DNA of 64,000 nucleotides from Candidatus Schekmanbacteria bacterium. GTDB lineage: Bacteria > CSSED10-310 > JACPHN01. The stretch's first letter is position 1. Every line of letters starts with the position of its first letter. The DNA lies in assembly GCA_016188575.1 (NCBI GenBank), contig JACPHN010000268.1, positions 916 through 64,915 on the forward strand. The letters are read 5' to 3'. The notes beneath the pieces are model-generated. The model ran no database searches. It saw only the letters and a program-made list of their open reading frames with translations, and had not been told where the DNA came from. A program made the translations under genes and the position numbers. Of this stretch, positions 8,756-47,136 are shown piece after piece.

Positions 8756-8785
8756 GGCGACTCCCTTCCTGAATCCACTACTTTC

Positions 8786-8819
8786 CACGCCTCCCCCCGC
8801 TTGTGGAGGTGAGGTGGGG
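8786..8819. repeat. GC-rich imperfect-palindromic dispersed repeat, copy B (intergenic)
   Basis: cacgcctccccccgcttgtggaggtgaggtgggg. A C-rich arm pairs with a G-rich arm (ggaggtgaggtgggg is the reverse complement of ccccacctcacctcc). Confidence 0.6.
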
Positions 8820-8973
8820 TGGAATGCTCCCCTCTGTGGATCCTGAGTAAGGTGGCCCCGCCGAGCTCTTCGAGCAACGGTCCCCCCAGCCTCCGGGAGA
8901 GGGGCCTCGGAAGTGTAGTAGAGGAACCGGCTTCCGAGCTCATTGGGGCCACCTATGTAAACACGTGCGGTGC

Positions 8974-10176
8974 TCATGCCGGCTTCGCCTCCGGAGCGAG
9001 CAGCCGGAGACCGCGCGTGCGATGCGTGTCGTCCGCATGCCAGCGGTGCAAACCGAGCATGCGAATCTGTTTGGCGATGTGCTCGATGACCTCCAGCGTC
9101 ACGTACTGGTGAATGGGGATCTCGAGGAGGTGCTCGCGAAGAAAGCGGACGGCGGGCGAGATCTCCGTGAGCGACGGGTCACCGACGTTCCAGAACTGGA
9201 CGGTCTGGATGCCCGCTGCCTCCAGCGCCGCCGCGGCCGCCGCCTTGTCGGGAACGAGCAGGGGAAAGAAGAGCGGACAGACGCCGTCGTCGATGGTGCT
9301 GCGCAGCAGCGGCGCCTGGCCATCCAGAAGCTGCACCAGGAGCTGAAAGTTCGCTCGCCGCCGCGGCCGGATCTCGGCGTAGGGCAGGCGCTCGAGGATG
9401 CGCCGCGACAGGTCGGAAAGCGCGATGTCGGCGACCGAGCGATCGAAGCCCGCATCGCCGACGGGAATCCGCGGCCCCCACGTCGCGCTCAGCAGGCGGC
9501 CGGTAGCGCGTTTCGCCGCCGCCAGCACCTGGCCCGCGCCGCCGGCCCGGCTGCGAAACCACTCCACCAGCAGCTCGCTCGCCCTGCCCGCGGTCGACAG
9601 CCGGTCACAAGGGCGCAACGGCATGGCCGCGAGCCCCGGAATCGGCCAGCGGTTCTGTGCCAGGATCGCGCCGTTGGGAACCGGTAGCGTCTTGTACAGG
9701 CAGAACACCGAGAAGTCCCCAAACGTGCCGAGCGGCTGTCCCTCCAGCTCGCTCAAGAGCGCCAGAGCACAATCCTCCACCAGCACGAGGTCGCGCTCCC
9801 GGCAAATCTCCGCGAGCTCCCGGATCGGCTGCGGCCAGCCGATGTAGTGGATCGATAGCAGCGCCCGGGCACCCGACCGCGCGAGCCGCGAGACCTGGTC
9901 CAGATCCGGCTGCAGGTGCCGGTCCACGCGGTAGAACCGCAAGCGGGCACCTGCCGCCAGAATCGCCTTGATCTCATTACCGTGGTGGTAATCCGGAACG
10001 AGAACGGTCTCGTCCGGCCGCAACATGAGTTGCGAAAACAGATGGTAGAGCGCGTTGCGCGCGCGGTACCGGTAGATGACGTCCGGACTGCCCAGCGGGA
10101 AGGGCCTGGGAGCAGCGGACGGCGGCGACAGGAAGAGGCGCGGATCGAGACCTGGCCCCGCGGATGCGTACATCAT
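8974..10176 (-). CDS. DegT/DnrJ/EryC1/StrS-family PLP-dependent sugar aminotransferase
   Basis: 400-aa protein from MMYASAGPGL… with the fold-type I aminotransferase architecture shared by WbpE/ArnB-type enzymes. Start at the double ATG 10176/10173, abutting the stop of the upstream FemAB-like gene (10173). The upstream 50 codons of the ORF are low-complexity. Confidence 0.7.
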   Translation of the reverse strand: MMYASAGPGLDPRLFLSPPSAAPRPFPLGSPDVIYRYRARNALYHLFSQLMLRPDETVLVPDYHHGNEIKAILAAGARLRFYRVDRHLQPDLDQVSRLARSGARALLSIHYIGWPQPIRELAEICRERDLVLVEDCALALLSELEGQPLGTFGDFSVFCLYKTLPVPNGAILAQNRWPIPGLAAMPLRPCDRLSTAGRASELLVEWFRSRAGGAGQVLAAAKRATGRLLSATWGPRIPVGDAGFDRSVADIALSDLSRRILERLPYAEIRPRRRANFQLLVQLLDGQAPLLRSTIDDGVCPLFFPLLVPDKAAAAAALEAAGIQTVQFWNVGDPSLTEISPAVRFLREHLLEIPIHQYVTLEVIEHIAKQIRMLGLHRWHADDTHRTRGLRLLAPEAKPA

Positions 10177-11375
10177 GCCTGGGTCCTCCTCATTGCATGG
10201 TTCAAGAGCGCACGTGCCTCGCTCATCGGGCGATAAAGCCGACTCGCGCGCAGCCGCGGCAGGATGTGGAACTTGAGCTGGCGGACCGCGCGGCTGCGCC
10301 AGCCGTGCGGGAAGAGAAACAGCCATTCATGGCGGCGCGTCGTCGCCGTCCACTCCCGCTTCCACGGCTCGTCGTCGCCGAGAAAGTCGAGCTCGCTCAA
10401 CCCGCGCTCGTAGCAGTGCTTGAGCACGTGAAAAACCAGAAGGTTGGTCGGCGAATACTGCCGGTACAGTGGGTCGAAGCCCGTCTTGACCAGGAAAAAA
10501 CGACCGCCGTACTCGAGCGCGAAGGCGAAGGCGATGCGCCGCCCGCCGGCCGTGAGAAAACAGAGGCGGAGCCAGCCGTGGCGCGCCGCCTCGGGGACGA
10601 GCTGGGCATAGAACTGCCGGCAGCTCTCAGTCGACGCGATCGCGGTGCCCGCGTCCTGCTTCCACGCGGCGCCCTCGATCTGGATGCCTTCCGCGAGCGC
10701 GCTTTCAACTTCGGAACCGGAGGTGACGATCTCCATGTCCAGGCTGGCGCTGCGCATGAGGCGGCCCAGGCGGTTGCGCAGATTGGCGCGGTGTTTGGCG
10801 GAGAGCGACCGCAGGTAGCCGTCGAAGGTCCCTTCCAGCTCCAGGTACGGAGCGTCGGCGGCGTGCCATAGCTCGCCGGCGACCGCGTCCGCGCGGGCGA
10901 GGGCCGGAAGTCTGCGCAGCGTCGGCGAGTCCGCGGGGAGCTGGCAGAGGGTCACGTAGTCCAGCTCGTCGAACATCTCGGTCACCTGCTGCCAGAGGGC
11001 CAGGTAGACGCGGTCGCTGCGCTCGCCGGCGAGATCGAAGCGAGAGGTGTGGGCATTGGCGAGAAACTCGAGCGTGACGGTCCTGAGCCCGTAGACGCGG
11101 CGCACCGACAGCATCATGGGGGCGACGGCGACAAGCTCGGTGCCGTCGCGGAAAACGAAAACCCGCAGCGCGTGTCCCGAGCCGAAGCTGTCCCACCAGC
11201 AACTGACCCAGGCGTGAGTATTGAAGGGATGATCGCCAGGTGAGCGGCGGGTCAGCGCGGACCATTCGGGTGCGAGCGCCGCCAGCCCGGCGCTGCTCTG
11301 CACCACCTCGACCGCGAGCCGGCCGCGCCGCGGCGCCAGCCGTTCAGTCGCTATCTCAAGCACGATCGCGCTCAT
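10173..11375 (-). CDS. FemAB/CelD-like GNAT acyltransferase, second paralogue
   Basis: 400-aa protein MSAIVLEIATERL… containing …GWLRLCFLTAGGRRIAFAFALEYGGRFFLVKTGFDP… (Acetyltransf_6-like). ATG at 11375 makes an ATGA overlap with the GT2 stop. Confidence 0.7.
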   Translation of the reverse strand: MSAIVLEIATERLAPRRGRLAVEVVQSSAGLAALAPEWSALTRRSPGDHPFNTHAWVSCWWDSFGSGHALRVFVFRDGTELVAVAPMMLSVRRVYGLRTVTLEFLANAHTSRFDLAGERSDRVYLALWQQVTEMFDELDYVTLCQLPADSPTLRRLPALARADAVAGELWHAADAPYLELEGTFDGYLRSLSAKHRANLRNRLGRLMRSASLDMEIVTSGSEVESALAEGIQIEGAAWKQDAGTAIASTESCRQFYAQLVPEAARHGWLRLCFLTAGGRRIAFAFALEYGGRFFLVKTGFDPLYRQYSPTNLLVFHVLKHCYERGLSELDFLGDDEPWKREWTATTRRHEWLFLFPHGWRSRAVRQLKFHILPRLRASRLYRPMSEARALLNHAMRRTQA

Positions 11376-12799
11376 AGTCGGAGCTCCCGAGGTTTCGCAT
11401 GGAGTAATCGCGGCCGCGCGGGGCGCGGCCGCCGCGGATCGCCGGCAGCCGGCGCCACCGCCACCGCCGCGCCTGACGCCTGCCAGAGATCCTGAGGATG
11501 GGTCACGTAGCGGTAGAGGCCGAGCACGGCGGCCCAGTTCAGCATGACGAAGTGGTAGGGAACGGACAGCAGCCGATCAAGCAGCCGCTGGGGTCCGCCG
11601 CCGCCGCCGGACAGGTGCGCGCGGCGATCGCCGCGCAAGCGATAGGCCCCGACCACCGCGAGCAGGTAGGCAGCGGTCTGCGCCACCAGGAATGCGGTAT
11701 AGAGCTCGCCCCGCAGCATCCAGCTCGACGCGTACAGCGCCGGCAGGAGAAAGGCGACGACGAGGCGCCCTACCTTGTGCGAGGCGAACTGCAGGAAGAT
11801 CGGATCACGCCACGGCATCAGCAGCTCGGGCATGCGCGCCAGGAGCTGGTAGTTTCCGGCGAGCGTGCGCACCTTGCGGCGCAGCTCCGCGCTCGACGGC
11901 TGCTCGCGGTCGTAGGCGCGCGCGGCCGGGTCGAGGACGGCGCGCTTGCCGCGCAGAACGGCCCCCATGGGAATCGCGACGTCGTCGAGAATGGTGTCGG
12001 CGGGCAGCGGTGTGTACAGGTCCCGGCGCACGGCATGCAGCGCGCCGGTGGCGCCCGGCAGCGAGTGAATGTCGCTCTCCAGTGCGCGCAGCCACCGGTC
12101 GTAGCGCCAGTACAGGCCGATGCCGTCGCCGGCCACGTTGCCGTTTTCGTCCAGCACGATGACCTCACCGCTCACCGCGCCCACCTCGGGGTCGTGGAAG
12201 TTGGCGATGAGCTCGCGCACGGCGGCGCTTTCCAGCCGCTGCCGGGCATCGGCAAAGACGATGACGTCGCCGCGAGCCGCCGCCACGCCGCGATTCAACG
12301 CCCCCGCCTTGCCCTCGTGGCGCGGCGACCGCACTACAGTGAGGCGCGGTGCCGGCCACGCGCGGCGCGGCGACCGCAGCGGCGACCACGGGTGGTCGCC
12401 TAATCCCAGAAACGCCCGGTGCGGCCCCCTACCCCTCCCCCCGCGCGCGGGGGCAGGTGTGGTGGGGCGTCTTCGCGATGCGTCCCAGGCGCTCGTGAGC
12501 CGCCGGTGGGCGCTCGCCCAACGTTCCACCACGCGATCCGTGCCGTCGCTCGGACCATCGAGCGCGATGACGATCTCCAGCTTGCTCGGCGGGTAAACCT
12601 GGCGCAGGCAGTCCTCGAGCTTGTCCACGATCGCCTCGCGCTCGTTGTAGGCGGCGATGACGATGCTCACCGACAGGCGACAGGGTTGCTTGTCCACCGG
12701 CGCCAGGCCATACCGCCGCCGGGCGAGCAAGTAGAGCGGATAGCCCACATACACGTAGGCGATGATCGCCAAACTGCTCCAAAAAACGACCTGCGCCAC
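11372..12799 (-). CDS. Family-2 glycosyltransferase (membrane GT2) carrying an in-frame ~51-codon insertion derived from a palindromic repeat
   Basis: The protein has an N-terminal TM helix, then SVSIVIAAYNE…LEIVIALDGPSDGT…[insertion]…GKAGALNRGV…DVIVFADAR… (DxD-type GT2 core), then C-terminal TM helices. GTG start at 12799, with GGAGG 8 nt upstream. Confidence 0.75.
   Translation of the reverse strand: MAQVVFWSSLAIIAYVYVGYPLYLLARRRYGLAPVDKQPCRLSVSIVIAAYNEREAIVDKLEDCLRQVYPPSKLEIVIALDGPSDGTDRVVERWASAHRRLTSAWDASRRRPTTPAPARGGRGRGPHRAFLGLGDHPWSPLRSPRRAWPAPRLTVVRSPRHEGKAGALNRGVAAARGDVIVFADARQRLESAAVRELIANFHDPEVGAVSGEVIVLDENGNVAGDGIGLYWRYDRWLRALESDIHSLPGATGALHAVRRDLYTPLPADTILDDVAIPMGAVLRGKRAVLDPAARAYDREQPSSAELRRKVRTLAGNYQLLARMPELLMPWRDPIFLQFASHKVGRLVVAFLLPALYASSWMLRGELYTAFLVAQTAAYLLAVVGAYRLRGDRRAHLSGGGGGPQRLLDRLLSVPYHFVMLNWAAVLGLYRYVTHPQDLWQASGAAVAVAPAAGDPRRPRPARPRLLHAKPRELRL
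12346..12499. repeat. In-frame repeat-derived insertion inside the GT2 gene (contains palindromic repeat copy C at 12426-12467 and a second palindrome ggcgaccacccgtggtcgcc)
   Basis: Codons 101-152 of the GT2 (TSAWDASRRRPTTPAPARGGRGRGPHRAFLGLGDHPWSPLRSPRRAWPAPRL) lie between the DGxxDGT and GKAxALN motifs, which are normally ~25 residues apart. The DNA carries cccctacccctccccccgcgcgcgggggcaggtgtggtgggg plus the perfect palindrome ggcgaccac-cc-gtggtcgcc. Confidence 0.6.
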
Positions 12800-12802
12800 G
12801 GC

Positions 12803-14152
12803 CTACAGCCTCCTGAGGTTCGACGCCTCGATGCCGCGCGTCGCGTTGCGGGTATCGAACACCAGCGGCGCCTGTCGGGTAATCTCCTCGTAGTCGAAGC
12901 CCGAATGGTCCGTCAGGATCAGCGCGAGGTGGCAGAGCTCCAGGAGCTGCGGCGTTGGCCGTTTGGACTCCAGAAGCTCGTCGCCGATGGTGATGGAGTC
13001 CACAAACGGGTCGCTATAGGAGACCGTCGCCCCGCGCTCCCTGAGCAGCTTGATGACCTCGAGAGCCGGCGATTCCCGGGTGTCGCAAACGTCCTTCTTG
13101 TAGGCCACGCCGAGCACGTGGATCCAGGTGCGGCTCAGGGGTCTGCCCGCCTCGCTCAAGATCTCCATCACCCGCATCACCACGTAACGGGGCATGCCGC
13201 GATTGATCTTGTCGGCAAGGTGAATGAGCTCCGGCACAAACCCATCGATCGTGGCCTTCCACTGCAAGTAGATGGGATCGACGGGGATGCAGTGCCCGCC
13301 GAGACCGGGACCCGGGAAAAACGGCATGAACCCGAACGGCTTGGTCGCCGCCGCGTCGATCACCTCCCACACGTCGATGTCCATGTGCTTGCACATCTGC
13401 GCCAGCTCGTTGACCAGCGCGATGTTTACGGCGCGGAAGGTGTTCTCCAGCAGCTTGACCATTTCGGCCACGCGCGTGTTGGAGACTTCCATCACGCCGC
13501 CCACGACCTGGCTGTACAGCGACGCCGCCAACCGCCGGCACCGGGGCGTCACCCCGGCGACGATCTTCGCGATGTTCTCGGTCTTGAACCTGGCATTGCC
13601 CGGGTCGACCCGTTCCGGCGAGTATGCCAGGAAGAAGTCCTCTCCGACCTTCAATCCGTGCGCCTGCAAGCGCGGCAGGACGATGTCCTCGGTGCTTCCC
13701 GGGTAGGTCGTGCTCTCCAGGATCACGAGCTGTCCGGGGCGCAGATGCGCCGCGACCTCTTCCGCCGCAGACAGCACGAAGGTCAGGTCCGGGTCGCGGC
13801 TCTTGCGCAACGGCGTGGGCACGCAGATGATGAGCACGTCCATATCCGGTAAGGCCGAAAAGTCGGTCGTCGCGGCAAACTTGCCTTCGTGGAGCGCCTG
13901 CATCACCCGGCGGCTGTGCACGTCGGTGATCTCGGAAACGCCATTCACCAGCCCGTCGACGCGCTCGGGGTTGATGTCGAAGCCGGTGGCGCGGAACCCG
14001 GCATCGGCACAAGCCATCGCCAGGGGTAGACCGACGTAGCCGAGGCCGAGCACACCGACGCGGGCGGTGCGCGTCTGCAAGCGGCCGGCGAGGGTTTCAA
14101 ACGAGTTGGTGACCTGAGTAGTTGGAACCTGCAGGACAGCGGTAGTGCTCAC
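12803..14152 (-). CDS. UDP-N-acetyl-D-glucosamine / -mannosamine 6-dehydrogenase (nucleotide-sugar dehydrogenase family, WbpA/WecC-like)
   Basis: 449-aa protein with an N-terminal Rossmann motif (VGVLGLGYVGLPLAMA), a catalytic-Cys region (…GGHCIPVDP…) and a UDPG_MGDP_dh C-terminal domain. GTG start at 14152 with AGGAGA 7 nt upstream. Confidence 0.85.
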   Translation of the reverse strand: MSTTAVLQVPTTQVTNSFETLAGRLQTRTARVGVLGLGYVGLPLAMACADAGFRATGFDINPERVDGLVNGVSEITDVHSRRVMQALHEGKFAATTDFSALPDMDVLIICVPTPLRKSRDPDLTFVLSAAEEVAAHLRPGQLVILESTTYPGSTEDIVLPRLQAHGLKVGEDFFLAYSPERVDPGNARFKTENIAKIVAGVTPRCRRLAASLYSQVVGGVMEVSNTRVAEMVKLLENTFRAVNIALVNELAQMCKHMDIDVWEVIDAAATKPFGFMPFFPGPGLGGHCIPVDPIYLQWKATIDGFVPELIHLADKINRGMPRYVVMRVMEILSEAGRPLSRTWIHVLGVAYKKDVCDTRESPALEVIKLLRERGATVSYSDPFVDSITIGDELLESKRPTPQLLELCHLALILTDHSGFDYEEITRQAPLVFDTRNATRGIEASNLRRL

Positions 14153-14163
14153 TGGTGCTTCTC

Positions 14164-16014
14164 CTATTCTACGGTGACGCTCTTGGCGAGGTTGCGGGGT
14201 TTGTCGACGTCGCAGCCGCGGCGCACGCCGATGTGGTAGGCGAGGAGCTGCAGCGGCAGAACCGTCAGCAGCGGTGAAAGCAACGGGTGCGTCGGCGCGA
14301 CAAAGATGGTTTCGTCCGCCTTTTCCTGCACCTCGTTGTCGCCTTCGGTAGCGATGGCGATGACCTTGCCGTCTCGCCCTTTCGCCTCCTCGACGTTCCC
14401 CATCGTCTTGCGGTAGACGTGATCTTGTGGGGCGACCACGACGACGGGCATCTGCGCGTCGATCAGGGCGATCGGACCGTGCTTCATCTCGCCGGCAGGG
14501 TAGCCCTCTGCGTGGGCATACGAGATTTCCTTCAGCTTCAAGGCGCCCTCCAGGGCAATCGGGTAGCTGATGCCGCGGCCCAGGAAGAGAAAGCTCGCGT
14601 GGTCGTGGAATCGCTCACAAAGCGGTTCGATCGCCTTGCGGGTGGCAAGGAATCGCTCCATGTCCTCGCTGAGCCGGTCGAGCCCGGCCACGTGCTCGGC
14701 GATCTGCTGGCGCGACAGCGCGCCGCGCAGCCCGCCGAGGTAGACCCCAAGCGCGAAGAGCAGCGCCACCTGGGTGGTGAACGCCTTGGTCGACGCCACG
14801 CCGATCTCGGGGCCGGCGTGGGTGTAGAGCACCGCGTCGGATTCGCGGGCGATCGAGCTGCCGACGACATTGCAAATCGACAGCACCACGGCGCCATGAT
14901 CGCGCGCCTCTCGCAAGCCGGCCAGAGTATCTGCCGTCTCGCCGGATTGGCTGATGCCCAGCACGAGGCTGTTCTTGCCCATCACGGGGTTGCGATAGCG
15001 AAACTCGCTGGCATAGTCGACGTCCACGGGCATCCGCGCCAGCGACTCGATCATGAGCTTGCCGATGAGGCCCGCGTGCAGGGAGGTGCCGCACGCGAGA
15101 ATCTGCAACCGCGGCGCCTTCCGGAGACGCTGCGTCAGGGCGCCGTTGAGGCGCGAGCAGAGATCGTCCTCGAGCACCACGCGGTCGCCGCGCACGCGAC
15201 CGCACAAGGTATCTCGCAGGGCACGCGGCTGCTCGAGAATCTCCTTGAGCATGAAGTGCGGGTAGCCCTCCTTTTCCGCCATTTCCGCGGTCCACTCCAG
15301 ATGCTGGCGGCGACATTCGATCGTTCTGGCCGCGGCATCCTGGAGCTCGACGTGGTCCGCTCGCAGCACGACAATCTCGCCATCGGCCAGGAAATGAACG
15401 TCGCGCGTGTAGGGCAGAATGGCGGGAACGTCCGATGCCACGATCATCTCGTGCTCGCCGAGCCCGACCACGAGCGGCAGGCCGCGGCGCACCGCAACGA
15501 TCTTGGAGGGCTCTGTCGTCGCGATGACCACCAGCCCGAAGACCCCCTCGATCTCGGCGATCGCGCCCCGCACCGCGTCTTCCAGCTTGCCGTTCAGGCG
15601 GGCCTCGATGAGGTGCGCGAGGACCTCGGAGTCGGTTTCGCTGTGGAAGATGTGCCCTTCAGCAATGAGGCGCCGCCGCAGCTCCACGTAGTTCTCGATG
15701 ATGCCGTTATGCGCGACCAGCACCCGGCCGGTGCAATCCGCGTGGGGATGCGCGTTGGCCTCCGTCGGCCGGCCGTGAGTCGCCCACCGGGTGTGTCCAA
15801 TGCCACAATGCCCTGCGGCCAGCGCCTGACCGAGAGTCGCCACCTTTTCCTCGAGCCCGCCGATGCGACCCGCGTAACGCAACAGGTGCATCGTGCCGTT
15901 GAGGGTGACGGCGATCCCGCAGGAGTCGTAGCCGCGGTATTCGAGCCGCTTGAGAGCGGAGACCAGCACGGGAGCGCTCTGCCGGTCGCCAACGTAGCCG
16001 ATGAGTCCACACAT
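14164..16014 (-). CDS. glmS: Glutamine--fructose-6-phosphate aminotransferase (isomerising)
   Basis: 616-aa protein MCGLIGYVG… (N-terminal Cys), two SIS domains (…SQSGETADTL…), C-terminus …KSVTVE. Canonical GlmS throughout. Confidence 0.95.
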   Translation of the reverse strand: MCGLIGYVGDRQSAPVLVSALKRLEYRGYDSCGIAVTLNGTMHLLRYAGRIGGLEEKVATLGQALAAGHCGIGHTRWATHGRPTEANAHPHADCTGRVLVAHNGIIENYVELRRRLIAEGHIFHSETDSEVLAHLIEARLNGKLEDAVRGAIAEIEGVFGLVVIATTEPSKIVAVRRGLPLVVGLGEHEMIVASDVPAILPYTRDVHFLADGEIVVLRADHVELQDAAARTIECRRQHLEWTAEMAEKEGYPHFMLKEILEQPRALRDTLCGRVRGDRVVLEDDLCSRLNGALTQRLRKAPRLQILACGTSLHAGLIGKLMIESLARMPVDVDYASEFRYRNPVMGKNSLVLGISQSGETADTLAGLREARDHGAVVLSICNVVGSSIARESDAVLYTHAGPEIGVASTKAFTTQVALLFALGVYLGGLRGALSRQQIAEHVAGLDRLSEDMERFLATRKAIEPLCERFHDHASFLFLGRGISYPIALEGALKLKEISYAHAEGYPAGEMKHGPIALIDAQMPVVVVAPQDHVYRKTMGNVEEAKGRDGKVIAIATEGDNEVQEKADETIFVAPTHPLLSPLLTVLPLQLLAYHIGVRRGCDVDKPRNLAKSVTVE

Positions 16015-16018
16015 GGTC

Positions 16019-17074
16019 CTACCTCGCGATCAGGGTCAGAGGGGGAGTCGGCGATCTCTTCACCGCAAGCTCGGGACGCTGGCGGCGGGCAAGCAGGAGC
16101 AGGAGCTCACCGAGGCGATCGCAATCGTGTTTCACCTCGTCGCAGTCCTCGCGCGACAGCAGGTTGGCGGCCAGCGGCGCCGTTCCCATCTGGCCGATCT
16201 CGCGCACGTCGTTGCGCACCGGCGCGGCGCCGAGCGCGGCGTAGCGGGCGCGCCGATCGTCCGGAATGGCCCCCGAGCTCAAGATACAGACGTCGATCAG
16301 GCCTCCTTCCAGGTATTCGGAGAGCACGCGCAGGTGGTCGGCGGCCGTGAAACCGTCCGTCTCGCCGGGCTGGGTCATGAGATTGCAAACGTACACCTTG
16401 AGCGCCGACGACAGGCGAATGGCGTCGGCAACGCCGTCCACGAGCAGGTTGGGCACGACGCTGGTGTACAGGCTGCCCGGCCCGAGCACGATCAGGTCGG
16501 AAAAGACCAGGGATTGCAGCACCCCACCCGACGCCGGCGGCGTGCAGGGTTCGAGCCACACCCGCGTGATCCGGCCGCGTTGCAGCGGGATCTGCGCCTC
16601 GCCGCGGACCACGCTGCCGTCGGCGAAGGCGGCGCAGAGGGTCACCGGGCTATCGGTGACGGGGAGCACGCGACCGCTGGCGTGCAGCAGCCCCGATGCC
16701 TGTTGGCTCGCCTTCGCCAGGCTGCCGTGCTCCTCGCAGTAGGCGGCGAGGATGAGGTTGCCGACAACCTGTCCCTGCAGCCCGTTGCCGCCGCGGAACC
16801 GGTACTGGAACAGGTCGCATAGCGGCGGCTCGCTGTCGGACAGCGCCGCCATGCAGTTGCGGATATCACCCACCGCGGGGATGCCGAGGTGTCTGCGAAG
16901 CCGACCCGTGGAGCCGCCGTTGTCAGCGGTGGTCACCACGGCCGAAATTTGCACGTCCCAGTCCGCGCCGCCGGCCCCCTGCTTGATCGCTGCGCGCTTC
17001 AAGCCTCGCAATACGGTTGACAATCCGTGTCCGCCGCCGACACCGACAATCCTGACGATGGTATTGGTTTTCAT
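16019..17074 (-). CDS. YvcK/GlmR-type gluconeogenesis factor (UPF0052, CofD-like fold)
   Basis: 351-aa protein MKTNTIVRIVGVGGGHGLS…VVTTADNGGSTGRLR…, the signature of the YvcK/UPF0052 family. Lies 4 nt upstream of glmS on the same strand. Confidence 0.8.
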   Translation of the reverse strand: MKTNTIVRIVGVGGGHGLSTVLRGLKRAAIKQGAGGADWDVQISAVVTTADNGGSTGRLRRHLGIPAVGDIRNCMAALSDSEPPLCDLFQYRFRGGNGLQGQVVGNLILAAYCEEHGSLAKASQQASGLLHASGRVLPVTDSPVTLCAAFADGSVVRGEAQIPLQRGRITRVWLEPCTPPASGGVLQSLVFSDLIVLGPGSLYTSVVPNLLVDGVADAIRLSSALKVYVCNLMTQPGETDGFTAADHLRVLSEYLEGGLIDVCILSSGAIPDDRRARYAALGAAPVRNDVREIGQMGTAPLAANLLSREDCDEVKHDCDRLGELLLLLARRQRPELAVKRSPTPPLTLIAR

Positions 17075-17077
17075 TTG

Positions 17078-18172
17078 TTACCCGTCCTGTCGATGATCCA
17101 AGCCGAAGATGACAACTTTGATGGTGCGAAGAAGAATGAAGACATCAAACCACACAGAAGCGTGCTTCGCGTAGTACAGGTCGTATTGCAGCTTCTCGTA
17201 GGCATCTTCAATCGAGTTGCCATAGTCGTAGCTGACCTGTGCCCAACCGGTAATACCCGGTTTGATGTAGTGTCTGAGGTCGTAGTAGGGGATCTGTTCT
17301 CCCAACATGCGCACGAAGCAGGGGCGCTCGGGCCTGGGTCCGACGAAGGTCATGTCGCCGCGCAGGACGTTGATGACCTGCGGGACCTCGTCGAGGTGCA
17401 GGCGGCGCAGGATGCGGCCGACCCGGGTAACGCGGTCATCGACGTCGCGCGCCCACATCGGTCCGGTATCCTGCTCAGCATCATGGCGCATGGAGCGGAA
17501 CTTGTACATCATGAAGGTGTCGCCATCCTTGCCGACGCGGTCCTGCGCGAACAGCACGGGGCCGCGGGATTCGAGCTTGATCGCCAGAGCGATCAGGAGC
17601 AGAATGGGCGCGGCCAGGACGAGGAGGGCGGCGGCGCAGACGATGTCGAGCCAGCGTTTGAGGCGGTCATGGCGAGCTGAGAAATGAAAGCCGTCGCAGA
17701 AGATCAGCCAGTCCGGCCGCACCGCATCGAGCCACACCTTGTGATGGCGGTGCTCGTAGAAGTCCGCCGCTTCTTCGATCTCGATGCCCAGCAGCTTGCC
17801 TTCGATCAGCGTCGAGGCGATGTCGGCAGCGCCATAGGCGTTGGGTTCGGTAATGACGATGCGCGAGACGCGCCCGGCGCGAATCAGGTCGCGAAGGCGT
17901 TCAGAGCTCAGCTCTTCGCTCGCGCCGCTACTGCGCGCGGAACGCATGGCCGTGGGCGTTCGCCCGTTGCCGTTGCGGTAGGCCGAGGTGCTCAGCATCG
18001 CGCCCTCGCCGCGGCCGTTGCGGGCGGCCTCCGCGGCAGGCGGCGCGGCGCCATCGAGCTCGCGGTGCAGCGTCGCCGCCAGGGCGCCGTTGCCGAGAAT
18101 AACGATGCCGGCCGAAGGGCGCTCGCGAGTCGGGTGCCAGAATTCGGTTCGGGGCACTTCAGTTCTTATCAT
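17078..18172 (-). CDS. Undecaprenyl-phosphate sugar phosphotransferase (bacterial sugar transferase, WbaP/EpsB type with N-terminal CoA-binding-like domain)
   Basis: 365-aa protein from MIRTEVPRTEF… with a C-terminal …PVLFAQDRVGKDGDTFMMYKFRSM…DEVPQVINVLRGDMTFVGPRPERP… block (Bac_transf). ATG at 18172 overlaps the Wzc-like gene end by 14 nt. The longer ORF upstream is out-of-frame noise. Confidence 0.8.
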   Translation of the reverse strand: MIRTEVPRTEFWHPTRERPSAGIVILGNGALAATLHRELDGAAPPAAEAARNGRGEGAMLSTSAYRNGNGRTPTAMRSARSSGASEELSSERLRDLIRAGRVSRIVITEPNAYGAADIASTLIEGKLLGIEIEEAADFYEHRHHKVWLDAVRPDWLIFCDGFHFSARHDRLKRWLDIVCAAALLVLAAPILLLIALAIKLESRGPVLFAQDRVGKDGDTFMMYKFRSMRHDAEQDTGPMWARDVDDRVTRVGRILRRLHLDEVPQVINVLRGDMTFVGPRPERPCFVRMLGEQIPYYDLRHYIKPGITGWAQVSYDYGNSIEDAYEKLQYDLYYAKHASVWFDVFILLRTIKVVIFGLDHRQDG

Positions 18173-20267
18173 GAACAGATTCCTCCGATGTTGCCGAGAC
18201 CAGGTAGCGCTCGGAGTAATACCGGTACGCATAGGCATAGGGTGCCGCGACGAAGCTGACGTCGTTGAGCACCACACCGAGCAGCTTCGTGGTGTCGAAG
18301 CTCTCGAAGGCGCGCTGAACCAGCTCGCGCCGGGTTGTCCGGGCGCGCACCACGAACAGCGTGCCGTCCACCAGCCGTTCCAGCACGTGGCTGTCCACCA
18401 TCGGCAGGACGGGGGGGGAATCGATGACGATGCAGGCGAAGCGCCGGCGCAGGCGGCCGAGGAGGCGCTCCAGGGAAGTGCGCAGCAACGAGCCGCCGGG
18501 CACGGACTGGCGCGCGCCACCGGTCAGGACGTAGAGGTTTCCTTGGCGGTGGATGTACTCCCAGAGGTCGGCGTCGGCGTTGCTGAGTAGCTCGGAAAGA
18601 CCTTTTTCCAGCGGCAGATGGAGATACGCGTGGAGGTGGGGCTTGCGCACGTCGGCGTCGACGAGCAGCACGGGACCCTCGAGGCTTTGTGAAAGGGCCA
18701 CCCCGAGGTTGATCGCGGTCGTCGATTTTCCTTCAGCCCCGGCGGCGCTCGTCACCATCACGGTCGTGCTTGGGGCTGCGGCCAGGCGCCGGGAAACGGC
18801 GTGAGCGAGGATGCGGTATTGCTCGGACTCCACGGAAGCCGGATTGGTGATCGTGACGACGTTCGGTGCCACGCCCAGAGGGACGCCGTTGCGCCGCGGC
18901 GGCACGATCGTGGGGATGGCGAGCAGCACCGGAGCGTCGCTGGCGGCGCGAAAGTCTTCGAGGTCGCGAAACGTGGTGTCCAGATGCTCCCGCGCGAGAC
19001 CGGCGCCGAGGCCGCAGCACAGCCCGGCGACAAGGCCCATCGCCAGGATCCTCAGGCGGCGCGGGCTCACGGGCTGGATCGGGGTGACGGCGGCCTCCGC
19101 AATGGTGAGCACCGCGCCGGTCCCGACGCCGAAGCGCTCGCCGAGCCTGGCCATCTGCAGCTCCTCGACCAGGCGTTGCCGTTGGGCGACGGCGGCGTCG
19201 TACTCGCGCACGAGCTGCGCCTCGGCGGGGGACAGCGCCTCCGTAGCCGCGGTCCCCCGGTTGATCGCTGCCTGCAGCGAGGTGTCTCCGCGCTCGCTCT
19301 GATACGGGGCAAGCTGCTGATTGACCGTGGCGAGCTCCTCCTGGAGGCGCGCCTGGCGGGATCGCAAGCCACGCAGCGTCCGGCCGGTCTGCCGTTCATG
19401 GCCCGCGGTTTCCTTCTCGAGGGCGGCCATTTCTTGCTGCACGGCGACCACTTCCGGGTGCGCGATGGTGTAGCGGCTCAGCAGCTCCCGGAACTGGGTG
19501 CGCAGCGCGGCAAGGCGTCCCTCTGCGGACTGCATGGCGGTGCCCGTGTCCGCGGCACGCGCGACGCGACGTTCCTGCTCGAGCTCACTGTCGATGTCCC
19601 GCAACGCACTCTCGAGGTTCGCCCGGCGGGCGCGCAGCACCGCGAGCTCGGAGTTCGTCCGCGAGCTCAACGCCTGCAGCTTTTGCTCCTGGCTCTCCAG
19701 GTTCCGTTCCGCTGCGGCCAGCTCCGCCTCGAGTCCGGCGATCGTCCATTGCGCCTGCCGGCGGGCACCGCCGCCTTGACCGGTGACGAGAATTTGGCCG
19801 AGGTGGTTTGCTACCTGCGCGGCGCGCCGCGGGCTCGTATCCTTGAAGCCGATGGCGACCGTCTGGGTCCCCTGGACCTGCACGGTGATGCGGTTGCGCA
19901 TCTCGGTGAGCTGCTGCTCGCTGAAGCCGCCGAGCTCGGGCTCGTAAAGGCGATATTCGCGCATGATGTCCGCCAGGACGGAACGACGCAGGAGTCGCTC
20001 GCCAATCGCGCCCAGCGCCCGCTGTGCGTCATCCGGTGTGCGGAAGCGATCCAGCGCCTCCGGTCCACCCATGGTTTCGGCAACCACCAGGAGCTCCGCG
20101 CGGTACTGGTCGGGCAGCCGCATCTGCCATCCCGCGGCTGCTGCCTCGAGAAGCAGGATTCCGGCCAACACCCAGACGCGGCGGCGTTTCAGCGTCTCCA
20201 GCAGGTACCTCACGGAGAGCTCGGTGCCGGCGTCTTTCTTGGACAGGCACTGATGATGTTTACTCAT
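18159..20267 (-). CDS. Polysaccharide co-polymerase fused to a BY-kinase (Wzc-like; chain-length determinant plus tyrosine autokinase)
   Basis: 702-aa protein with an N-terminal TM helix, long coiled-coil periplasmic region, second TM helix (…LRILAMGLVAGLCCGLGAGLA…), then a P-loop ATPase (…VTSAAGAEGKSTTAINLGVAL…VLLVDADVRKP…) and a Tyr-containing C-terminal tail (…YAYAYRYYSERY…). Confidence 0.8.
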   Translation of the reverse strand: MSKHHQCLSKKDAGTELSVRYLLETLKRRRVWVLAGILLLEAAAAGWQMRLPDQYRAELLVVAETMGGPEALDRFRTPDDAQRALGAIGERLLRRSVLADIMREYRLYEPELGGFSEQQLTEMRNRITVQVQGTQTVAIGFKDTSPRRAAQVANHLGQILVTGQGGGARRQAQWTIAGLEAELAAAERNLESQEQKLQALSSRTNSELAVLRARRANLESALRDIDSELEQERRVARAADTGTAMQSAEGRLAALRTQFRELLSRYTIAHPEVVAVQQEMAALEKETAGHERQTGRTLRGLRSRQARLQEELATVNQQLAPYQSERGDTSLQAAINRGTAATEALSPAEAQLVREYDAAVAQRQRLVEELQMARLGERFGVGTGAVLTIAEAAVTPIQPVSPRRLRILAMGLVAGLCCGLGAGLAREHLDTTFRDLEDFRAASDAPVLLAIPTIVPPRRNGVPLGVAPNVVTITNPASVESEQYRILAHAVSRRLAAAPSTTVMVTSAAGAEGKSTTAINLGVALSQSLEGPVLLVDADVRKPHLHAYLHLPLEKGLSELLSNADADLWEYIHRQGNLYVLTGGARQSVPGGSLLRTSLERLLGRLRRRFACIVIDSPPVLPMVDSHVLERLVDGTLFVVRARTTRRELVQRAFESFDTTKLLGVVLNDVSFVAAPYAYAYRYYSERYLVSATSEESVHDKN

Positions 20268-21561
20268 AAGGCAACACCGTGCGAAGCCGGTCGACTTCCT
20301 CGTCCCAGGCGCGGGACGCGGTGTCCGAGGCTGTCAGGTTGAGGCGCAAGCCGAGCGCGAAGCGCCGTGCGGTCAGGGCCGCAAGCTCCGGGGTGGAAAG
20401 CTGCTGATCGAGGAGCTGCGCGTCCAGGAAGGCGTCGAGGTTGTTGCGCAGGCGCACGTTCAGGTGGGCTCGCGAGCTGAGGGTAGTAAGCTCGCCGCCG
20501 GTGCTGAGCGCGGCGCGCGCCCGCTGCAGCCGCGCCTGGTAGCGAAGGCGGCTGCCGAGACGGCCCGCGAAGGCCAGGCTATAGATGCGCGCCGTGGCAC
20601 TTCCGGAAACGGCGCCGCCATAGGGGTCTGGCGCTCCACCTTCGCCCGCGTCGGGGCCGCTGGACAGACCGGCGCCTTCGAGCGCCAACACTCTGCGGTC
20701 AGCGGCGCCGCTGAGCACGTGGCGGCCGCCGCGGAGCCGCACGGAGGCCTCGACGCCCATCACGATCTCGACCTCTGCCGTGCGCTCGTAGCGCGCCACG
20801 CCGCTGCGGATGCGAGCCGCCAGGGCGGGGCGCGGAGCGAGGGAGCAGGTGGCCTCGACCTGGTGCACCGGCTCCGAGGTCTCGGCGAGGCCGGCGCCGG
20901 CGCCCGCGGCGTCGGTCCGCGTCGCCGCGTACAGATAGGTATAGCCAAGGCCGACGCTCGTCGAGCTCGCGAGCTGCCACGTCAGGCTCAGGTTTCCCGT
21001 TCCCGCGCCCTGATCGATGGGCACGTCGGCGGATTCCAACAGGAGTCGGCCGTGGCTCACACTGGCCTCGAGGCTTGCCGCCAGATCCGTGCGGCGGGTC
21101 AGCTCGTGGCGAGCGCCCACGGCGAGCCGCCCCTGCCAGAATGGGCTGCTGGCTACCGCCAGTAGCGGTTGACCGAGCTCTCTGCCGGCGTCGCGGCTGG
21201 AGAAGACGGAGCCAAATACGGTAAAACCCGCGCGGCCCACGTCGGTCCCATAGCGCAGCCCCGCCTGTTGGCGCGCGGCGAGCACGCGCCCCGTCTCCCG
21301 CACCCACTCCACGTGCGGCTCATAGGCGGCGATCAGCTCGCTCACGGCGCGGCGGTACGACACCAGGACGCTTTGCCGCAATGTCAGGTAGGAGCGGGCT
21401 TCGCCCTCGGGCGTCCGCTCGGACGTGCGGGACTCGTGAGCGACGCTCACCGCCGCGGGCAGCAGCCAACGCGCCGCTGCCCCGGAACCAGTGGGGCTCG
21501 CCAGGGCGGCGAGCATTGCCAGCGTCGCCCCGAGGAACCTCAGCACCGTCGATGTCGTCAT
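20260..21561 (-). CDS. Predicted outer-membrane beta-barrel protein of EPS loci (uncharacterised, signal peptide)
   Basis: 433-aa protein with N-terminal signal peptide MTTSTVLRFLGATLAMLAALASP, then an alternating hydrophobic/polar, Gly/Ala/Ser/Thr/Arg-rich sequence with no TM helices. Sits between the Wza-like and Wzc-like genes. Confidence 0.5.
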   Translation of the reverse strand: MTTSTVLRFLGATLAMLAALASPTGSGAAARWLLPAAVSVAHESRTSERTPEGEARSYLTLRQSVLVSYRRAVSELIAAYEPHVEWVRETGRVLAARQQAGLRYGTDVGRAGFTVFGSVFSSRDAGRELGQPLLAVASSPFWQGRLAVGARHELTRRTDLAASLEASVSHGRLLLESADVPIDQGAGTGNLSLTWQLASSTSVGLGYTYLYAATRTDAAGAGAGLAETSEPVHQVEATCSLAPRPALAARIRSGVARYERTAEVEIVMGVEASVRLRGGRHVLSGAADRRVLALEGAGLSSGPDAGEGGAPDPYGGAVSGSATARIYSLAFAGRLGSRLRYQARLQRARAALSTGGELTTLSSRAHLNVRLRNNLDAFLDAQLLDQQLSTPELAALTARRFALGLRLNLTASDTASRAWDEEVDRLRTVLPYE

Positions 21562-21572
21562 ACCAGAGCTCC

Positions 21573-22175
21573 TCAGCGCACGTAAATGACGTCCGCCGGC
21601 TGGATGTCGAAGGGGTTTTCCGCACCATTGAGCATGGCCTTGATATTCACTGTGATCTTGCGCTCGGCGTCCGATCCCTGGCTGCGGATGACGATGACGC
21701 TCGCGCGGCGCGCGAACTCCGTGAATCCGCCGGCGAGAGCGATGGCGTCGAGCACCGAGAGGCGCTGCCGGACCACGTACCAGTCAGGACGCGTCACCTC
21801 GCCGAAAACGGCGATGCGGTGGCTGTTGATTTCCTTGACCACGACGGTGACGATCGGGTGCTCGATATACTTCTGCAGCCGCCTGGCGATCTCCTCCTGG
21901 AGGTCTTGCGGGATGCGTCCGCTGGCGCGGATCTCGCCTGCGAGGGGCACCGAGAGGTAGCCATCCGGGCGCACGATGACCGTTCGGGAAATGTCGGGCT
22001 CGCGCCAGACGAAGACCTCCACGACGTCCTCGGGTCCCAGGCGGTAGGTGTCTGTGGCGAGGAGCTCGTCTGCGGGCGCCGCATCGTCCGCTCCGGCGGC
22101 GGCGGCGAGGAGCGACGGAGCGGCGAGAGTCAGCGCGAAGAAGAGCGACAAGCAATGGCGTATAAGGAGATACAT
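21573..22175 (-). CDS. Periplasmic polysaccharide export protein (short Wza/Poly_export + SLBB type)
   Basis: 200-aa protein with a signal peptide (MYLLIRHCLSLFFALTLAAPSLLAAAAG) and a …YRLGPEDVVEVFVWREPDISRTVIVRPDGYLSVPLAGEIRASG… Poly_export motif. First gene downstream of the sigma-54 promoter. Confidence 0.75.
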   Translation of the reverse strand: MYLLIRHCLSLFFALTLAAPSLLAAAAGADDAAPADELLATDTYRLGPEDVVEVFVWREPDISRTVIVRPDGYLSVPLAGEIRASGRIPQDLQEEIARRLQKYIEHPIVTVVVKEINSHRIAVFGEVTRPDWYVVRQRLSVLDAIALAGGFTEFARRASVIVIRSQGSDAERKITVNIKAMLNGAENPFDIQPADVIYVR

Positions 22176-22233
22176 AAGAACCGTTTACTCTTTGTTAGAC
22201 CGATGTTGTTTTGCTGGCGTCCGCGGAAGAGCT

Positions 22234-22250
22234 TGCAAGGTCTATGCCAC
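22234..22250 (-). promoter_or_regulatory. Sigma-54 (RpoN) promoter for the EPS operon
   Basis: The minus strand reads G-TGGCAT-AGACC-TTGCA-A. This matches the TGGCAC-N5-TTGCA consensus with correct GG/GC spacing and a single mismatch at a weakly conserved position. Predicted TSS is ~48 nt upstream of the Wza-like ATG. Confidence 0.55.
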
Positions 22251-22297
22251 CGCGAGAGATGCGGCTTGGACGGCCATTTGCCGCGGTTCTGGGGCCG

Positions 22298-22334
22298 TGC
22301 AATGGACCCCCTTCCATGGAAGGGTCGTTCCGCA
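22298..22334. promoter_or_regulatory. Two adjacent inverted repeats ~60-110 bp upstream of the sigma-54 promoter; candidate enhancer (UAS) for the bEBP
   Basis: Perfect 16-bp palindrome CCCTTCCATGGAAGGG (22298-22313), followed by the imperfect GTTCCGCAAGTGGAATG (22318-22334). Both have the TTCC-N4-6-GGAA form. Confidence 0.35.
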
Positions 22335-22446
22335 AGTGGAATGTCGGTTCAACTCTCAGTACAGGTCTCTAGGGACTTGTCCCGGCACAGCATCGGCAGA
22401 CACCTGACAGGGCAGTTGCCAGGGGCACGATCTCCGTCTCCTTCTG

Positions 22447-22525
22447 CCCTCCGTTCCCCCCGCTGGCGAAGGGAGGTGAGGTGGGGGGAGGGCAGGGGTG
22501 GGGGGAGAGCTGGAGGGTGGGGGAG
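22447..22525. repeat. GC-rich imperfect-palindromic dispersed repeat, copy D, followed by a G-rich run
   Basis: ccctccgttccccccgctggcgaagggaggtgaggtgggggg then gagggcaggggtggggggagagctggagggtggggg. Intergenic between the Wza-like gene and the LuxR regulator. Confidence 0.6.
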
Positions 22526-22539
22526 AAACCGCAGCCCGC

Positions 22540-23247
22540 CTATTGTTCCCGCGCCGCTGCGGTCAGGCCGTGCTCAATGGCCTGAAGAACCGCCTGCGCG
22601 GTGCTCTGGACGCCCATCTTGGTGCGGATTCGCGTTTTGTGGGCGTCGACGGTGCTGGTGGTGATGCCCAGTCGGGTGCCGATTTCCCGACTCTTCATGC
22701 CCTGGATGAGCAAGGTCAGAACCTCGCGCTCGCGCTCGGAGAGCTCGGTGGGGGCCGGCACCTGCCGCTGCAGAACGCACTTCAGCATGGCGTCCGAGAT
22801 ACTTGGACTGAGGTGAACGAGTCCACTGGCGACCTCCGCGAGCGCCTGGGAAAGGTCACCGGCAGGGTCCGAGGTGAGCACGACACCTCTGGCGCCGGCG
22901 CGCAGCCCATCCACGAGCTTCTGCTGCAGGGCGGCTTCGGTGCTGACCAGGATGACCTGGGTGGCAGGAGAGTGGCGGCGGATCTGCCTGGCCGTGGCAA
23001 TGCTGTCGGCAGTCGCGTCGAGGTCGATGATGGCGACGTCCGGGTGCGCGGCCGCGGCAAGAGCGATGGCGTTCCGCGCGCCGTCGGCCTCCCCGATGAT
23101 CGTGGCGAAGCTGGTATCCAGTGCTGCGCAAATGGCGGTTCGCATGGCCGAGTGAGCGCTCACCACGGCGACGCGGAGCACGGCTCTACCGCCAGGTCGC
23201 GGCTTGACCGCGAGCACTGGACGGCCGAGCGGAGGCCGAAATCTCAT
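22540..23247 (-). CDS. LuxR/NarL-family response regulator with a degenerate (probably non-phosphorylatable) receiver domain
   Basis: 235-aa protein from MRFRPPLGRP…. C-terminal HTH_LuxR (…LSEREREVLTLLIQGMKSREIGTRLGITTSTVDAHKTRIRTKMGV…). The N-terminal REC-like domain has the acidic pair replaced (VAVVSAHS instead of DD) and the conserved Lys position reads VVLTSD. The upstream 121 codons of the ORF are low-complexity and rejected. Confidence 0.65.
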   Translation of the reverse strand: MRFRPPLGRPVLAVKPRPGGRAVLRVAVVSAHSAMRTAICAALDTSFATIIGEADGARNAIALAAAAHPDVAIIDLDATADSIATARQIRRHSPATQVILVSTEAALQQKLVDGLRAGARGVVLTSDPAGDLSQALAEVASGLVHLSPSISDAMLKCVLQRQVPAPTELSEREREVLTLLIQGMKSREIGTRLGITTSTVDAHKTRIRTKMGVQSTAQAVLQAIEHGLTAAAREQ

Positions 23248-23604
23248 CGTCGCGTCCTCTCGTGCGTGTTCCCGGTGCGGGCGAGACCAGAGTGGTTCTC
23301 CCGGGAGGGAGCTCTGCGGTTGCTTTATGCAATCGCCATACCATGCCGCCCTGGCGGCGAAACGCCCATCGTAAGTACCACCGGCGCGGCCGGCGGTGCC
23401 TCCGAATGGAAGTAGCGTTCCCCTTCGTGAACGCGGGTGGCGCCGTCGTGCTCCGACTCCTTCCTGCCCCGCTCGCGGCAGGGTTGGGGTGGGGGCTACG
23501 CAGTATTGCCGAGGGGCTCCTCGGGGTTTTTCCGCAGAACCCAGGGGTTTCACAGGAGCTCGTCTAGGGTTTCGGGCGGGCCGTCCGTAGGCGGCCCACC
23601 GGAT

Positions 23605-23632
23605 TGTCAACGATGGCCGCGCTACTTATCTT
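23605..23632 (+). promoter_or_regulatory. Candidate sigma-70-type promoter for the bEBP gene
   Basis: TTGTCA (23605-23610), 16-bp spacer, TATCTT (23627-23632). This is the only AT-rich patch in the divergent intergenic region. Gene ATG is at 23710, preceded by AGGAGAGGGG. Confidence 0.3.
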
Positions 23633-23709
23633 CATAGAAGTGCTTATGGAAGGAACCGCGGCACCTCATACCAGGCGCCCGCTCGGCGGGCAAGCAGGAG
23701 AGGGGAAAA

Positions 23710-47135: not shown

Positions 47136-47136
47136 T

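Follow-up and report, generated by a model that had tools for sequence, protein, structure and literature searches.

What drives the transcription of some 22 kb of stacked genes for exopolysaccharide (EPS) synthesis and export in an uncultivated bacterium? The question is raised by a 64,000-nt stretch of DNA (hereafter "the window") from a Candidatus Schekmanbacteria bacterium, in which 16 consecutive genes, judging from family scans of their products, encode a complete Wzx/Wzy polysaccharide pathway. All junctions within this operon either overlap or measure no more than 15 nt, so that the 364-nt gap at positions 22176–22539, between the first gene (wza-like) and a NarL/LuxR-type regulator gene, is the only promoter-sized non-coding DNA available for ~22 kb of genes. 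The original prediction had been that a dedicated activator places the whole EPS/export operon under the control of RpoN. This claim finds support in silico, in that the promoter motif, the gap, the activator gene, the enrichment of the motif at homologous operons and a second copy of the upstream array agree with one another. Accordingly, the answer that we consider rather probable is that the gap holds an enhancer-dependent sigma-54 promoter driving the entire operon, and that this promoter is served by a neighboring, receiver-less activator acting on an array of TTCC/GGAA half-sites (coordinates in Table 1).

The element at the center of this reading, TGGCATAGACCTTGCA, reads TGGCAT-AGACC-TTGCA and agrees with TGGCAC-N5-TTGCW at 10 of the 11 core positions, its GG (−24) and GC (−12) being exactly 10 nt apart, which is the canonical spacing. 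It is the sole match to TGGCAY-N5-TTGCW on either strand of the 64-kb window, where 0.05 would be expected (one match was present in 5 of 100 shuffled windows), and it obtains the highest score among 20 looser GG-N10-GC candidates. The motif lies in the non-coding gap, faces the wza-like gene and is separated from its ATG (22175) by 58 nt; the distance of 48 nt to the first gene given in the original prediction is right as the length of the leader, if transcription begins, as assumed here, 11–12 nt past the −12 GC, but not as the motif-to-ATG distance. A scan for sigma-70-like promoters gave no hit on this strand of the gap. A near-consensus sigma-54 promoter in front of the EPS operon, unique in the window and on the correct strand, is thus borne out, and TGGCATAGACCTTGCA is, with high probability, functional as a promoter.

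Upstream of TGGCATAGACCTTGCA, four half-sites follow one another in roughly 10-bp phase. Two TTCC…GGAA palindromes had been described in this region and both are present, a perfect one of 16 bp (CCCTTCCATGGAAGGG, 22309–22324) and an imperfect one (TTCCACTTGCGGAA, 22328–22341, inside which falls the position 22334 previously taken as the end of the region), their centers preceding the TGG triplet by ~67 and ~85 nt; they are, however, not independent sites but constituents of a single array. With respect to the predicted start, the array is located about 93–118 nt upstream, and the palindromes do lie at the distance anticipated for an upstream activating sequence (UAS), dyad-symmetric sites of this kind being typically placed about 80–150 nt from the start; a second copy stands in the same register at a second sigma-54-like element. 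Between −60 and −200 nothing else stands out as a candidate enhancer, and inspection by eye of the DNA between array and promoter (22250–22311) revealed no site for the integration host factor.

The second sigma-54-like element, TGGTATGGCGATTGCA, ends 80 nt upstream of the ATG of the NarL-type regulator gene. Its GG/GC spacing is correct and 9 of its 11 core positions agree with the consensus; the promoter of Klebsiella nifH likewise has TGGTAT at −24. An array related to the first one precedes this element as well. In fact, GGAACG-N4-TTCCAT occurs exactly twice in the window (22331..22316 and 23421..23406), on the same strand in both cases and followed by the respective TGG triplet at a distance of 67 and 63 nt. 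If up to three mismatches to the first 16-mer are allowed, 0.38 occurrences are expected per shuffled window, and for such a match in that register of any of ~20 sigma-54-like sites the expectation calculated is ~1e-3; furthermore, TTCC-N6-GGAA-N6-TTCC with at most one mismatch gives three hits as against 0.22 expected. The proposal to look for the TTCC/GGAA element at other sigma-54 promoters has therefore yielded a second instance, in the same register, before the adjacent regulator gene. A MAFFT alignment of the two upstream regions was uninformative; what is convincingly common to them is only the array and the promoter elements. Elsewhere in the window, a palindrome sharing the GGAACG half-site with the array (GCGGAACGTGCGTTCCGC, of the form GGAACG..CGTTCC) is found inside the Wzy-like gene at 4760–4777; no sigma-54-like motif is suitably placed downstream, and this occurrence is probably due to chance.

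The activator gene announced at 1.4 kb in divergent orientation is where it was said to be. Its 345-aa product scores above cutoff for PF00158, PF25601 and PF02954 (HTH_8) and its loop reads ERGAFTGA. The AAA+ domain begins at about residue 14–18 and is not preceded by an N-terminal regulatory domain (receiver, GAF, PAS, V4R or the like); an in-frame stop is found just upstream of the well-placed Shine–Dalgarno sequence, and a tblastn search for a decayed receiver detected no remnant in the 462-nt divergent gap. By its domain content the protein is assigned to the regulatory-domain-less subgroup of the enhancer-binding proteins of the NtrC family. Homologues of similar length (P0004, P0010, P0014 and P0039, 338–345 aa) are encoded in metagenomes and this architecture is therefore recurrent rather than an artefact of truncation. 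The description of the factor as a "dedicated activator" holds insofar as a bona fide enhancer-binding protein is encoded nearby; its dedication is a matter of proximity, the protein being devoid of a sensory domain.

The gene interposed between activator and operon encodes a NarL/LuxR-type response regulator whose receiver, when aligned with three homologues and with E. coli NarL, is seen to retain the phospho-acceptor Asp, whereas Ser-Ala replaces the acidic pair and Thr occupies the position of the conserved Lys. Its sequence thus suggests an atypical receiver, probably operating independently of phosphorylation. Since the activator has no receiver and that of the NarL-type regulator is degenerate, neither protein resembles a conventional phospho-switch, and the scans of the window's genes, which covered all but a few open reading frames, revealed no histidine kinase. 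A third CTTCCAT (23646–23652) is located just downstream of the sigma-70-like promoter of the activator gene and might, speculatively, be an operator for its autoregulation.

The comparison with related loci was based on 80 loci having a wza homologue, in which matches of at least 10/11 within 450 nt upstream of the gene and on its own strand were scored. Seven loci have such a motif, whereas 0.58 are expected from the loci-wide rate (Poisson P ~3e-6), which corresponds to an approximately 12-fold enrichment at homologous operons. The motif-bearing loci include three of the eight closest (L001, L002 and L006) and a locus of Myxococcaceae (L010, 10/11). The arrangement in L002 comprises, in this order, a LuxR-type regulator, a receiver-containing activator 53% identical to that of the window, the sigma-54 motif, wza and a homologue of the 433-aa protein encoded by the second gene of the operon; in L006 a homologous activator, an RsbR/S/T-like module and a hybrid kinase are followed by an 11/11 motif and wza-wzc. 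The activators of these two loci are about 51–53% identical to that of the window and their C-terminal helix-turn-helix (HTH) motif (NWNRK..A..L...YK.L.NKL.KW) is closely similar, as is also that of two receiver-less homologues. Relatives close enough for fine-scale footprinting do not exist: among 185,579 species genomes identity to the closest Wza does not exceed 58%, the nearest homologues belonging to metagenome-assembled genomes (MAGs) of Acidobacteria, and the next-best relative of the activator among 5.8 billion proteins is 57% identical. When only the DNA-binding domain served as query, three fragments were obtained, on contigs shorter than 1.6 kb. A metagenome scan for array, spacer and sigma-54 motif together gave three distinct sequences, of which two look coding and the third is the genuine-looking promoter of a flagellar flgB operon (L085/L088, described below); this count is about what chance would produce according to our estimate, and the hits were rejected as support.

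From these elements the following course of events can be envisaged. RNA polymerase containing sigma-54 would bind TGGCATAGACCTTGCA as a closed complex, the AAA+ activator would assemble on the phased half-sites upstream of the predicted start and its hydrolysis of ATP would open the promoter, giving rise to a 22-kb polycistronic mRNA. The likeliest activator would be the receiver-less enhancer-binding protein encoded 1.4 kb away, and the NarL-type gene would represent its second target; a small sigma-54 regulon would then unite the activator, the regulator and the operon. Lacking a sensory domain, the activator would depend for its output either on its own expression or on an unseen partner, as in the cases of PspF or HrpR/S. 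Firing of the promoter, binding of the activator to the array and co-control of the regulator gene are, all three, steps that we infer from the arrangement of the sites. A bolder version of this scheme, which we advance tentatively and regard as somewhat doubtful, is that of a phosphorylation-blind sigma-54 cascade in which a receiver-less activator, through duplicated enhancer–promoter modules of a new TTCC/GGAA specificity, acts on both the operon and the gene for the degenerate-receiver NarL-type protein; control of the matrix operon would in this case have moved from two-component signaling to a purely transcriptional feed-forward/feedback loop.

Table 1. Features of the polysaccharide locus and of its upstream region (positions are those of the window)
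Feature	Position	Strand	Basis or remark
Candidate sigma-54 −24/−12 element TGGCATAGACCTTGCA	22249..22234	minus	direct read; predicted start ~22223
Promoter-proximal DNA and predicted ~48-nt leader	22176..22233	minus	before the wza-like ATG
Enhancer-like array TTCC-N6-GGAA-N6-TTCC-N2-GGAA	22312..22341	minus	63–92 nt upstream of TGG
Second sigma-54-like element TGGTATGGCGATTGCA	23343..23328	minus	9/11 core, GG/GC spacing correct
Second array TTCA-N6-GGAA-N6-TTCC-N4-GGAG	23400..23431	minus	57–88 nt upstream of second TGG
Enhancer-binding protein gene, 345 aa	23710..24747	plus	PF00158 E=2e-67, GAFTGA, AAA lid, Fis-type HTH
NarL/LuxR-type response-regulator gene	22540..23247	minus	between activator and operon; Shine–Dalgarno GAGAGGA before ATG 23247
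Wzx/Wzy-type polysaccharide operon, 16 genes, ~22 kb	140..22175	minus	family scans
First gene: Wza-like export protein, 200 aa, signal peptide, Poly_export + SLBB	21573..22175	minus	PF02563 E=5e-24
Sigma-70-like promoter TTGTCA-17-TATCTT of the activator gene, then CTTCCAT site (23646–23657)	23604..23657	plus	promoter scan
C-rich, G-poor tract including tandem 17-nt unit	22431..22535	minus (transcribed strand)	directly after the regulator stop codon

Several observations weigh against control of the operon by the neighboring activator through the array. Perfect 16-bp palindromes are not rare in this DNA (67% G+C), five being present in the window as compared to ~3.5 expected from Markov simulations; CCCTTCCATGGAAGGG alone is thus at chance frequency and its weight comes only from its position and from the existence of a second array. 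With regard to the latter, a promoter-anchored test for shared k-mers between the two upstream regions gave P=0.08, and their semi-global alignment scored 76.5 as against 67 ± 9.5 for shuffled sequences, which is not significant. Five of the eight closest wza loci have no sigma-54 motif. Furthermore, the TTCC/GGAA array was not found upstream of the sigma-54 motifs of L002, L081 and L084, which have activators with a similar HTH; a comparable site, CTTCTTGGAAG, is present in L006 alone, at a distance of 93 nt upstream (base rate, 0.005 per 150 nt), and the enhancer assignment rests on duplication within the window rather than on conservation across species. Finally, rpoN was not found among the scanned genes, a result whose scope is the window only, and the NarL-type regulator is encoded closer to the array than the activator and constitutes an equally local candidate for its binding. 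That the window's own activator binds the array is a prediction which we consider about as likely as not.

The last point leads to the main competing explanation, namely a genuine sigma-54 promoter whose upstream array serves as operator for the NarL/LuxR-type regulator, be it in the role of co-activator, of anti-activator or of autoregulator; the AAA+ activator would in that case act from other DNA, or the promoter would depend on another activator encoded elsewhere in the genome. Short inverted repeats are common targets of proteins with a GerE/LuxR-type HTH, a distance of 200 nt separates the end of the regulator gene from the array, the copy of the array upstream of this same gene fits autoregulation, LuxR-type regulators stand beside homologous activators in L002 and L081, and the array is not common to loci whose activators have a similar HTH. 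Nevertheless, a sigma-54 promoter would still require an AAA+ activator, and the half-sites are placed at the classical distance and in the helical phase of an enhancer at both sigma-54-like elements, no other enhancer being evident between −60 and −200; since, in addition, the receiver of the regulator is degenerate, we regard this explanation as unlikely. Less credible still is the view that the sigma-54 motif is fortuitous, so that transcription of the operon would begin at an unrecognized sigma-70 or extracytoplasmic function (ECF) promoter within the gap, or else result from read-through out of the regulator gene, the targets of the activator being unrelated. A match to the motif does turn up in 5 of 100 shuffles, most wza homologues of other genomes are not preceded by one, the scan detected no intrinsic terminator beyond the regulator gene, and the failure to find a sigma-70-like promoter on the operon strand of the gap carries little weight, the housekeeping consensus used in that scan being possibly not that of this lineage. 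However, the expectation for a single match on the right strand within the 364-nt gap is reduced to ~0.05 × 364/128000, and chance would have to account also for the 12-fold enrichment of the motif at homologous operons, the vicinity of the activator gene and the second promoter-plus-array copy, a coincidence that we deem improbable. A transcript-level role of palindromes and C-rich tract together, as terminator, attenuator or small RNA belonging to the regulator gene, would agree with the long imperfect inverted repeats spanning 22431–22508 and with the position of the tract directly after the regulator stop codon. On the other hand, the energy of the predicted fold is no better than that of shuffles (z=0.41), no Rfam family reaches the gathering threshold and no terminator-like site is found in the gap, while the array lies apart from the tract and its second copy stands in front of the regulator gene, not behind it; such a role is very improbable. 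Enhancer-dependent transcription from TGGCATAGACCTTGCA consequently remains the preferred explanation.

The C-rich tract deserves a few more words. Its tandem 17-nt unit reads GGTGGGGGGAGGGCAGG / GGTGGGGGGAGAGCTGG on the plus strand, which is rich in G-runs; a shorter copy of the tract is located at 23477–23497, and before the promoter of the regulator a related CCCCCACCCC..CCCTGCC block and GAAGGAGNCGGAG are met with again. The tract could be a Rho-loading site or Rho-type terminator, a quadruplex-forming insulator separating the regulator gene from the operon promoter, or nothing at all.

The operon downstream of the promoter begins with the genes for the Wza-like protein, a 433-aa protein of no known family, a Wzc-like co-polymerase/tyrosine kinase, a priming sugar transferase, YvcK and GlmS, continues with those for a UDP-sugar dehydrogenase-like protein (so called from the translation alone), a GT2 glycosyltransferase, a GNAT protein, a DegT aminotransferase and another GNAT protein (the two GNAT proteins being GNAT/FemAB-like), and ends with those for a deacetylase, a UDP-GlcNAc 2-epimerase, a Wzy-like polymerase, a Wzx-like flippase and an Asn-synthase-type amidotransferase. 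The 433-aa protein (20260–21561, minus strand) has a signal-peptide-like N-terminus and matches no Pfam or NCBIfam model, and in L002 the gene immediately following wza encodes a 429-aa counterpart; the protein is possibly an uncharacterized outer-membrane partner of the short Wza-like exporter. The presence within the operon of genes for both YvcK (UDP-GlcNAc-binding, CofD-like; 16019–17074, minus strand) and GlmS (14164–16014, minus strand) implies that the supply of precursors and its regulator would be co-transcribed with the export machinery. Outside the operon, at 44796–49533 on the plus strand, a sucrose-phosphate synthase/phosphatase fusion adjoins a sucrose synthase gene, a pair that is uncommon beyond cyanobacteria and plants.

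Some of the loci collected for comparison have features of their own. Homologous activators adjoin partner-switching modules resembling RsbR/S/T/U (STAS, HATPase and SpoIIE) both in L081 (1786–8300) and in L006 (14–5836); near polysaccharide-related genes, L081 also encodes a HisKA_3 kinase, two LuxR-type regulators and, immediately before the receiver-less activator P0039, a stand-alone receiver. This context suggests the existence of a wider, undescribed signaling cassette for this subfamily of activators. In L084 a 10/11 sigma-54 motif (TGGCATGTCCGTTGCA, 6521–6536) precedes by ~125 nt the gene of the receiver-less activator P0014, and rpoN is encoded on the same contig ~5.4 kb away; there, the P0014 gene may in turn depend on sigma-54. 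A perfect sigma-54 promoter, TTGGCACGCATGTTGCT, is found before a flgB-fliE-fliF-fliG flagellar operon (L085 15–118 / L088 877–980), and 72 nt upstream of it GGAACGGTTCTTCCAT has 12 specified bases identical to those of the window's array, a likeness that is probably coincidental.

If the operon is controlled as proposed, what would be gained from this knowledge? Control by sigma-54 is tight and all-or-none, and a single small regulatory cassette would decide whether matrix production is switched on or off. The host belongs to an uncultivated lineage of soil or groundwater, and the locus adds a non-proteobacterial case to the link between sigma-54 and the cell exterior, besides supplying a candidate enhancer sequence for a subfamily of activators without sensory domains. 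Current understanding is left unchanged, and the value of the locus lies in a clean and testable regulon prediction, all the more so as a fragment of 2.6 kb accommodates promoter, enhancer and the two regulators and would lend itself to reconstitution in a heterologous host.

How does the locus compare with systems already described? Enhancer-binding proteins devoid of a regulatory domain are represented by PspF and by HrpR/HrpS. The activator of the window resembles PspF in consisting of AAA+ and HTH without an N-terminal sensory domain, TIGR02974 aligning with residues 27–330; it differs in that its score with this equivalog model is 269 bits, as compared to a cutoff of 443.55, and in that its presumed target is a polysaccharide operon. 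No gene for a PspA- or HrpV-like antagonist was seen near it.

A resemblance of another kind exists with the PEP-CTERM box and the PrsK/PrsR pair of proteobacteria, in which polysaccharide-associated loci are under sigma-54 control (Haft et al. 2006, PMC1569441); in that study the box was found only in Proteobacteria, and its motif 1 contains TTTACA (PMC1569441), and pepA of Aquincola is RpoN-dependent (PMC9850573). Common to both cases are the bipartite activator site followed by a spacer and by a GG/GC sigma-54 site, the association with polysaccharide loci of the exosortase type and an NtrC-family activator encoded nearby; moreover, the operon proteins of the window match the XrtA/PEP-CTERM family models best. 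Their scores, however, remain below the cutoffs, with 147.6 bits against 180 for TIGR03027 (the Wza-like protein), 135 against 278.85 for TIGR03007, 132.3 against 230.65 for TIGR03018, 364.8 against 393.35 for TIGR03013 and 629.7 against 816.9 for TIGR03108. Unlike PrsR, the activator has no receiver domain and obtains 310.3 bits as against the TIGR02915 cutoff of 502.6; neither TTTACA nor TGTAAA occurs in either of the two upstream regions, and neither a PrsK kinase nor an exosortase was identified among the scanned genes. Furthermore, the target here is the biosynthesis/export operon itself rather than single genes for PEP-CTERM proteins, and the organism is known from a Candidatus Schekmanbacteria MAG, with closest relatives in Acidobacteria, whereas the box is proteobacterial. 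On account of the sub-cutoff scores and the missing receiver and TTTACA, we reject membership in either the PrsK/PrsR or the XrtA/PEP-CTERM system, so that the locus is related to the XrtA/PEP-CTERM type but, by the curated thresholds, not a member of it.

The syp locus of Vibrio fischeri, with 18 genes in four operons whose sigma-54 promoters are activated by the locus-encoded SypG (PMC10162802), is likewise a large polysaccharide locus (16 genes in the window) with an activator of its own that serves, or here would serve, more than one promoter. SypG has a receiver and is driven by a phosphorelay (RscS/SypF), unlike the receiver-less activator of the window; to the four syp operons correspond here one stacked operon and a regulator gene, and the two cases concern unrelated organisms with different enhancer sequences. 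A cross-phylum survey has, in more general terms, tied sigma-54 to the cell exterior (PMC3162934).

The EPS locus of Myxococcus with its activator EpsI/Nla24 provides a further parallel, the Wza-like protein of the window matching the EpsY model NF041843 with 104 bits. The Bep polysaccharide locus of Burkholderia with the activator BerB (PMC9684580) offers another, and in both, as here, a sigma-54 activator is tied to a Wzx/Wzy cluster. The activators of these two systems reportedly sense c-di-GMP (cyclic diguanylate) or phosphorylation, whereas no such input can be inferred for that of the window, and sequence identity to the window is at the family level only. Sigma-54 control of polysaccharide loci is therefore already familiar; what is unusual here is the combination of a receiver-less activator with a degenerate NarL-type co-regulator.

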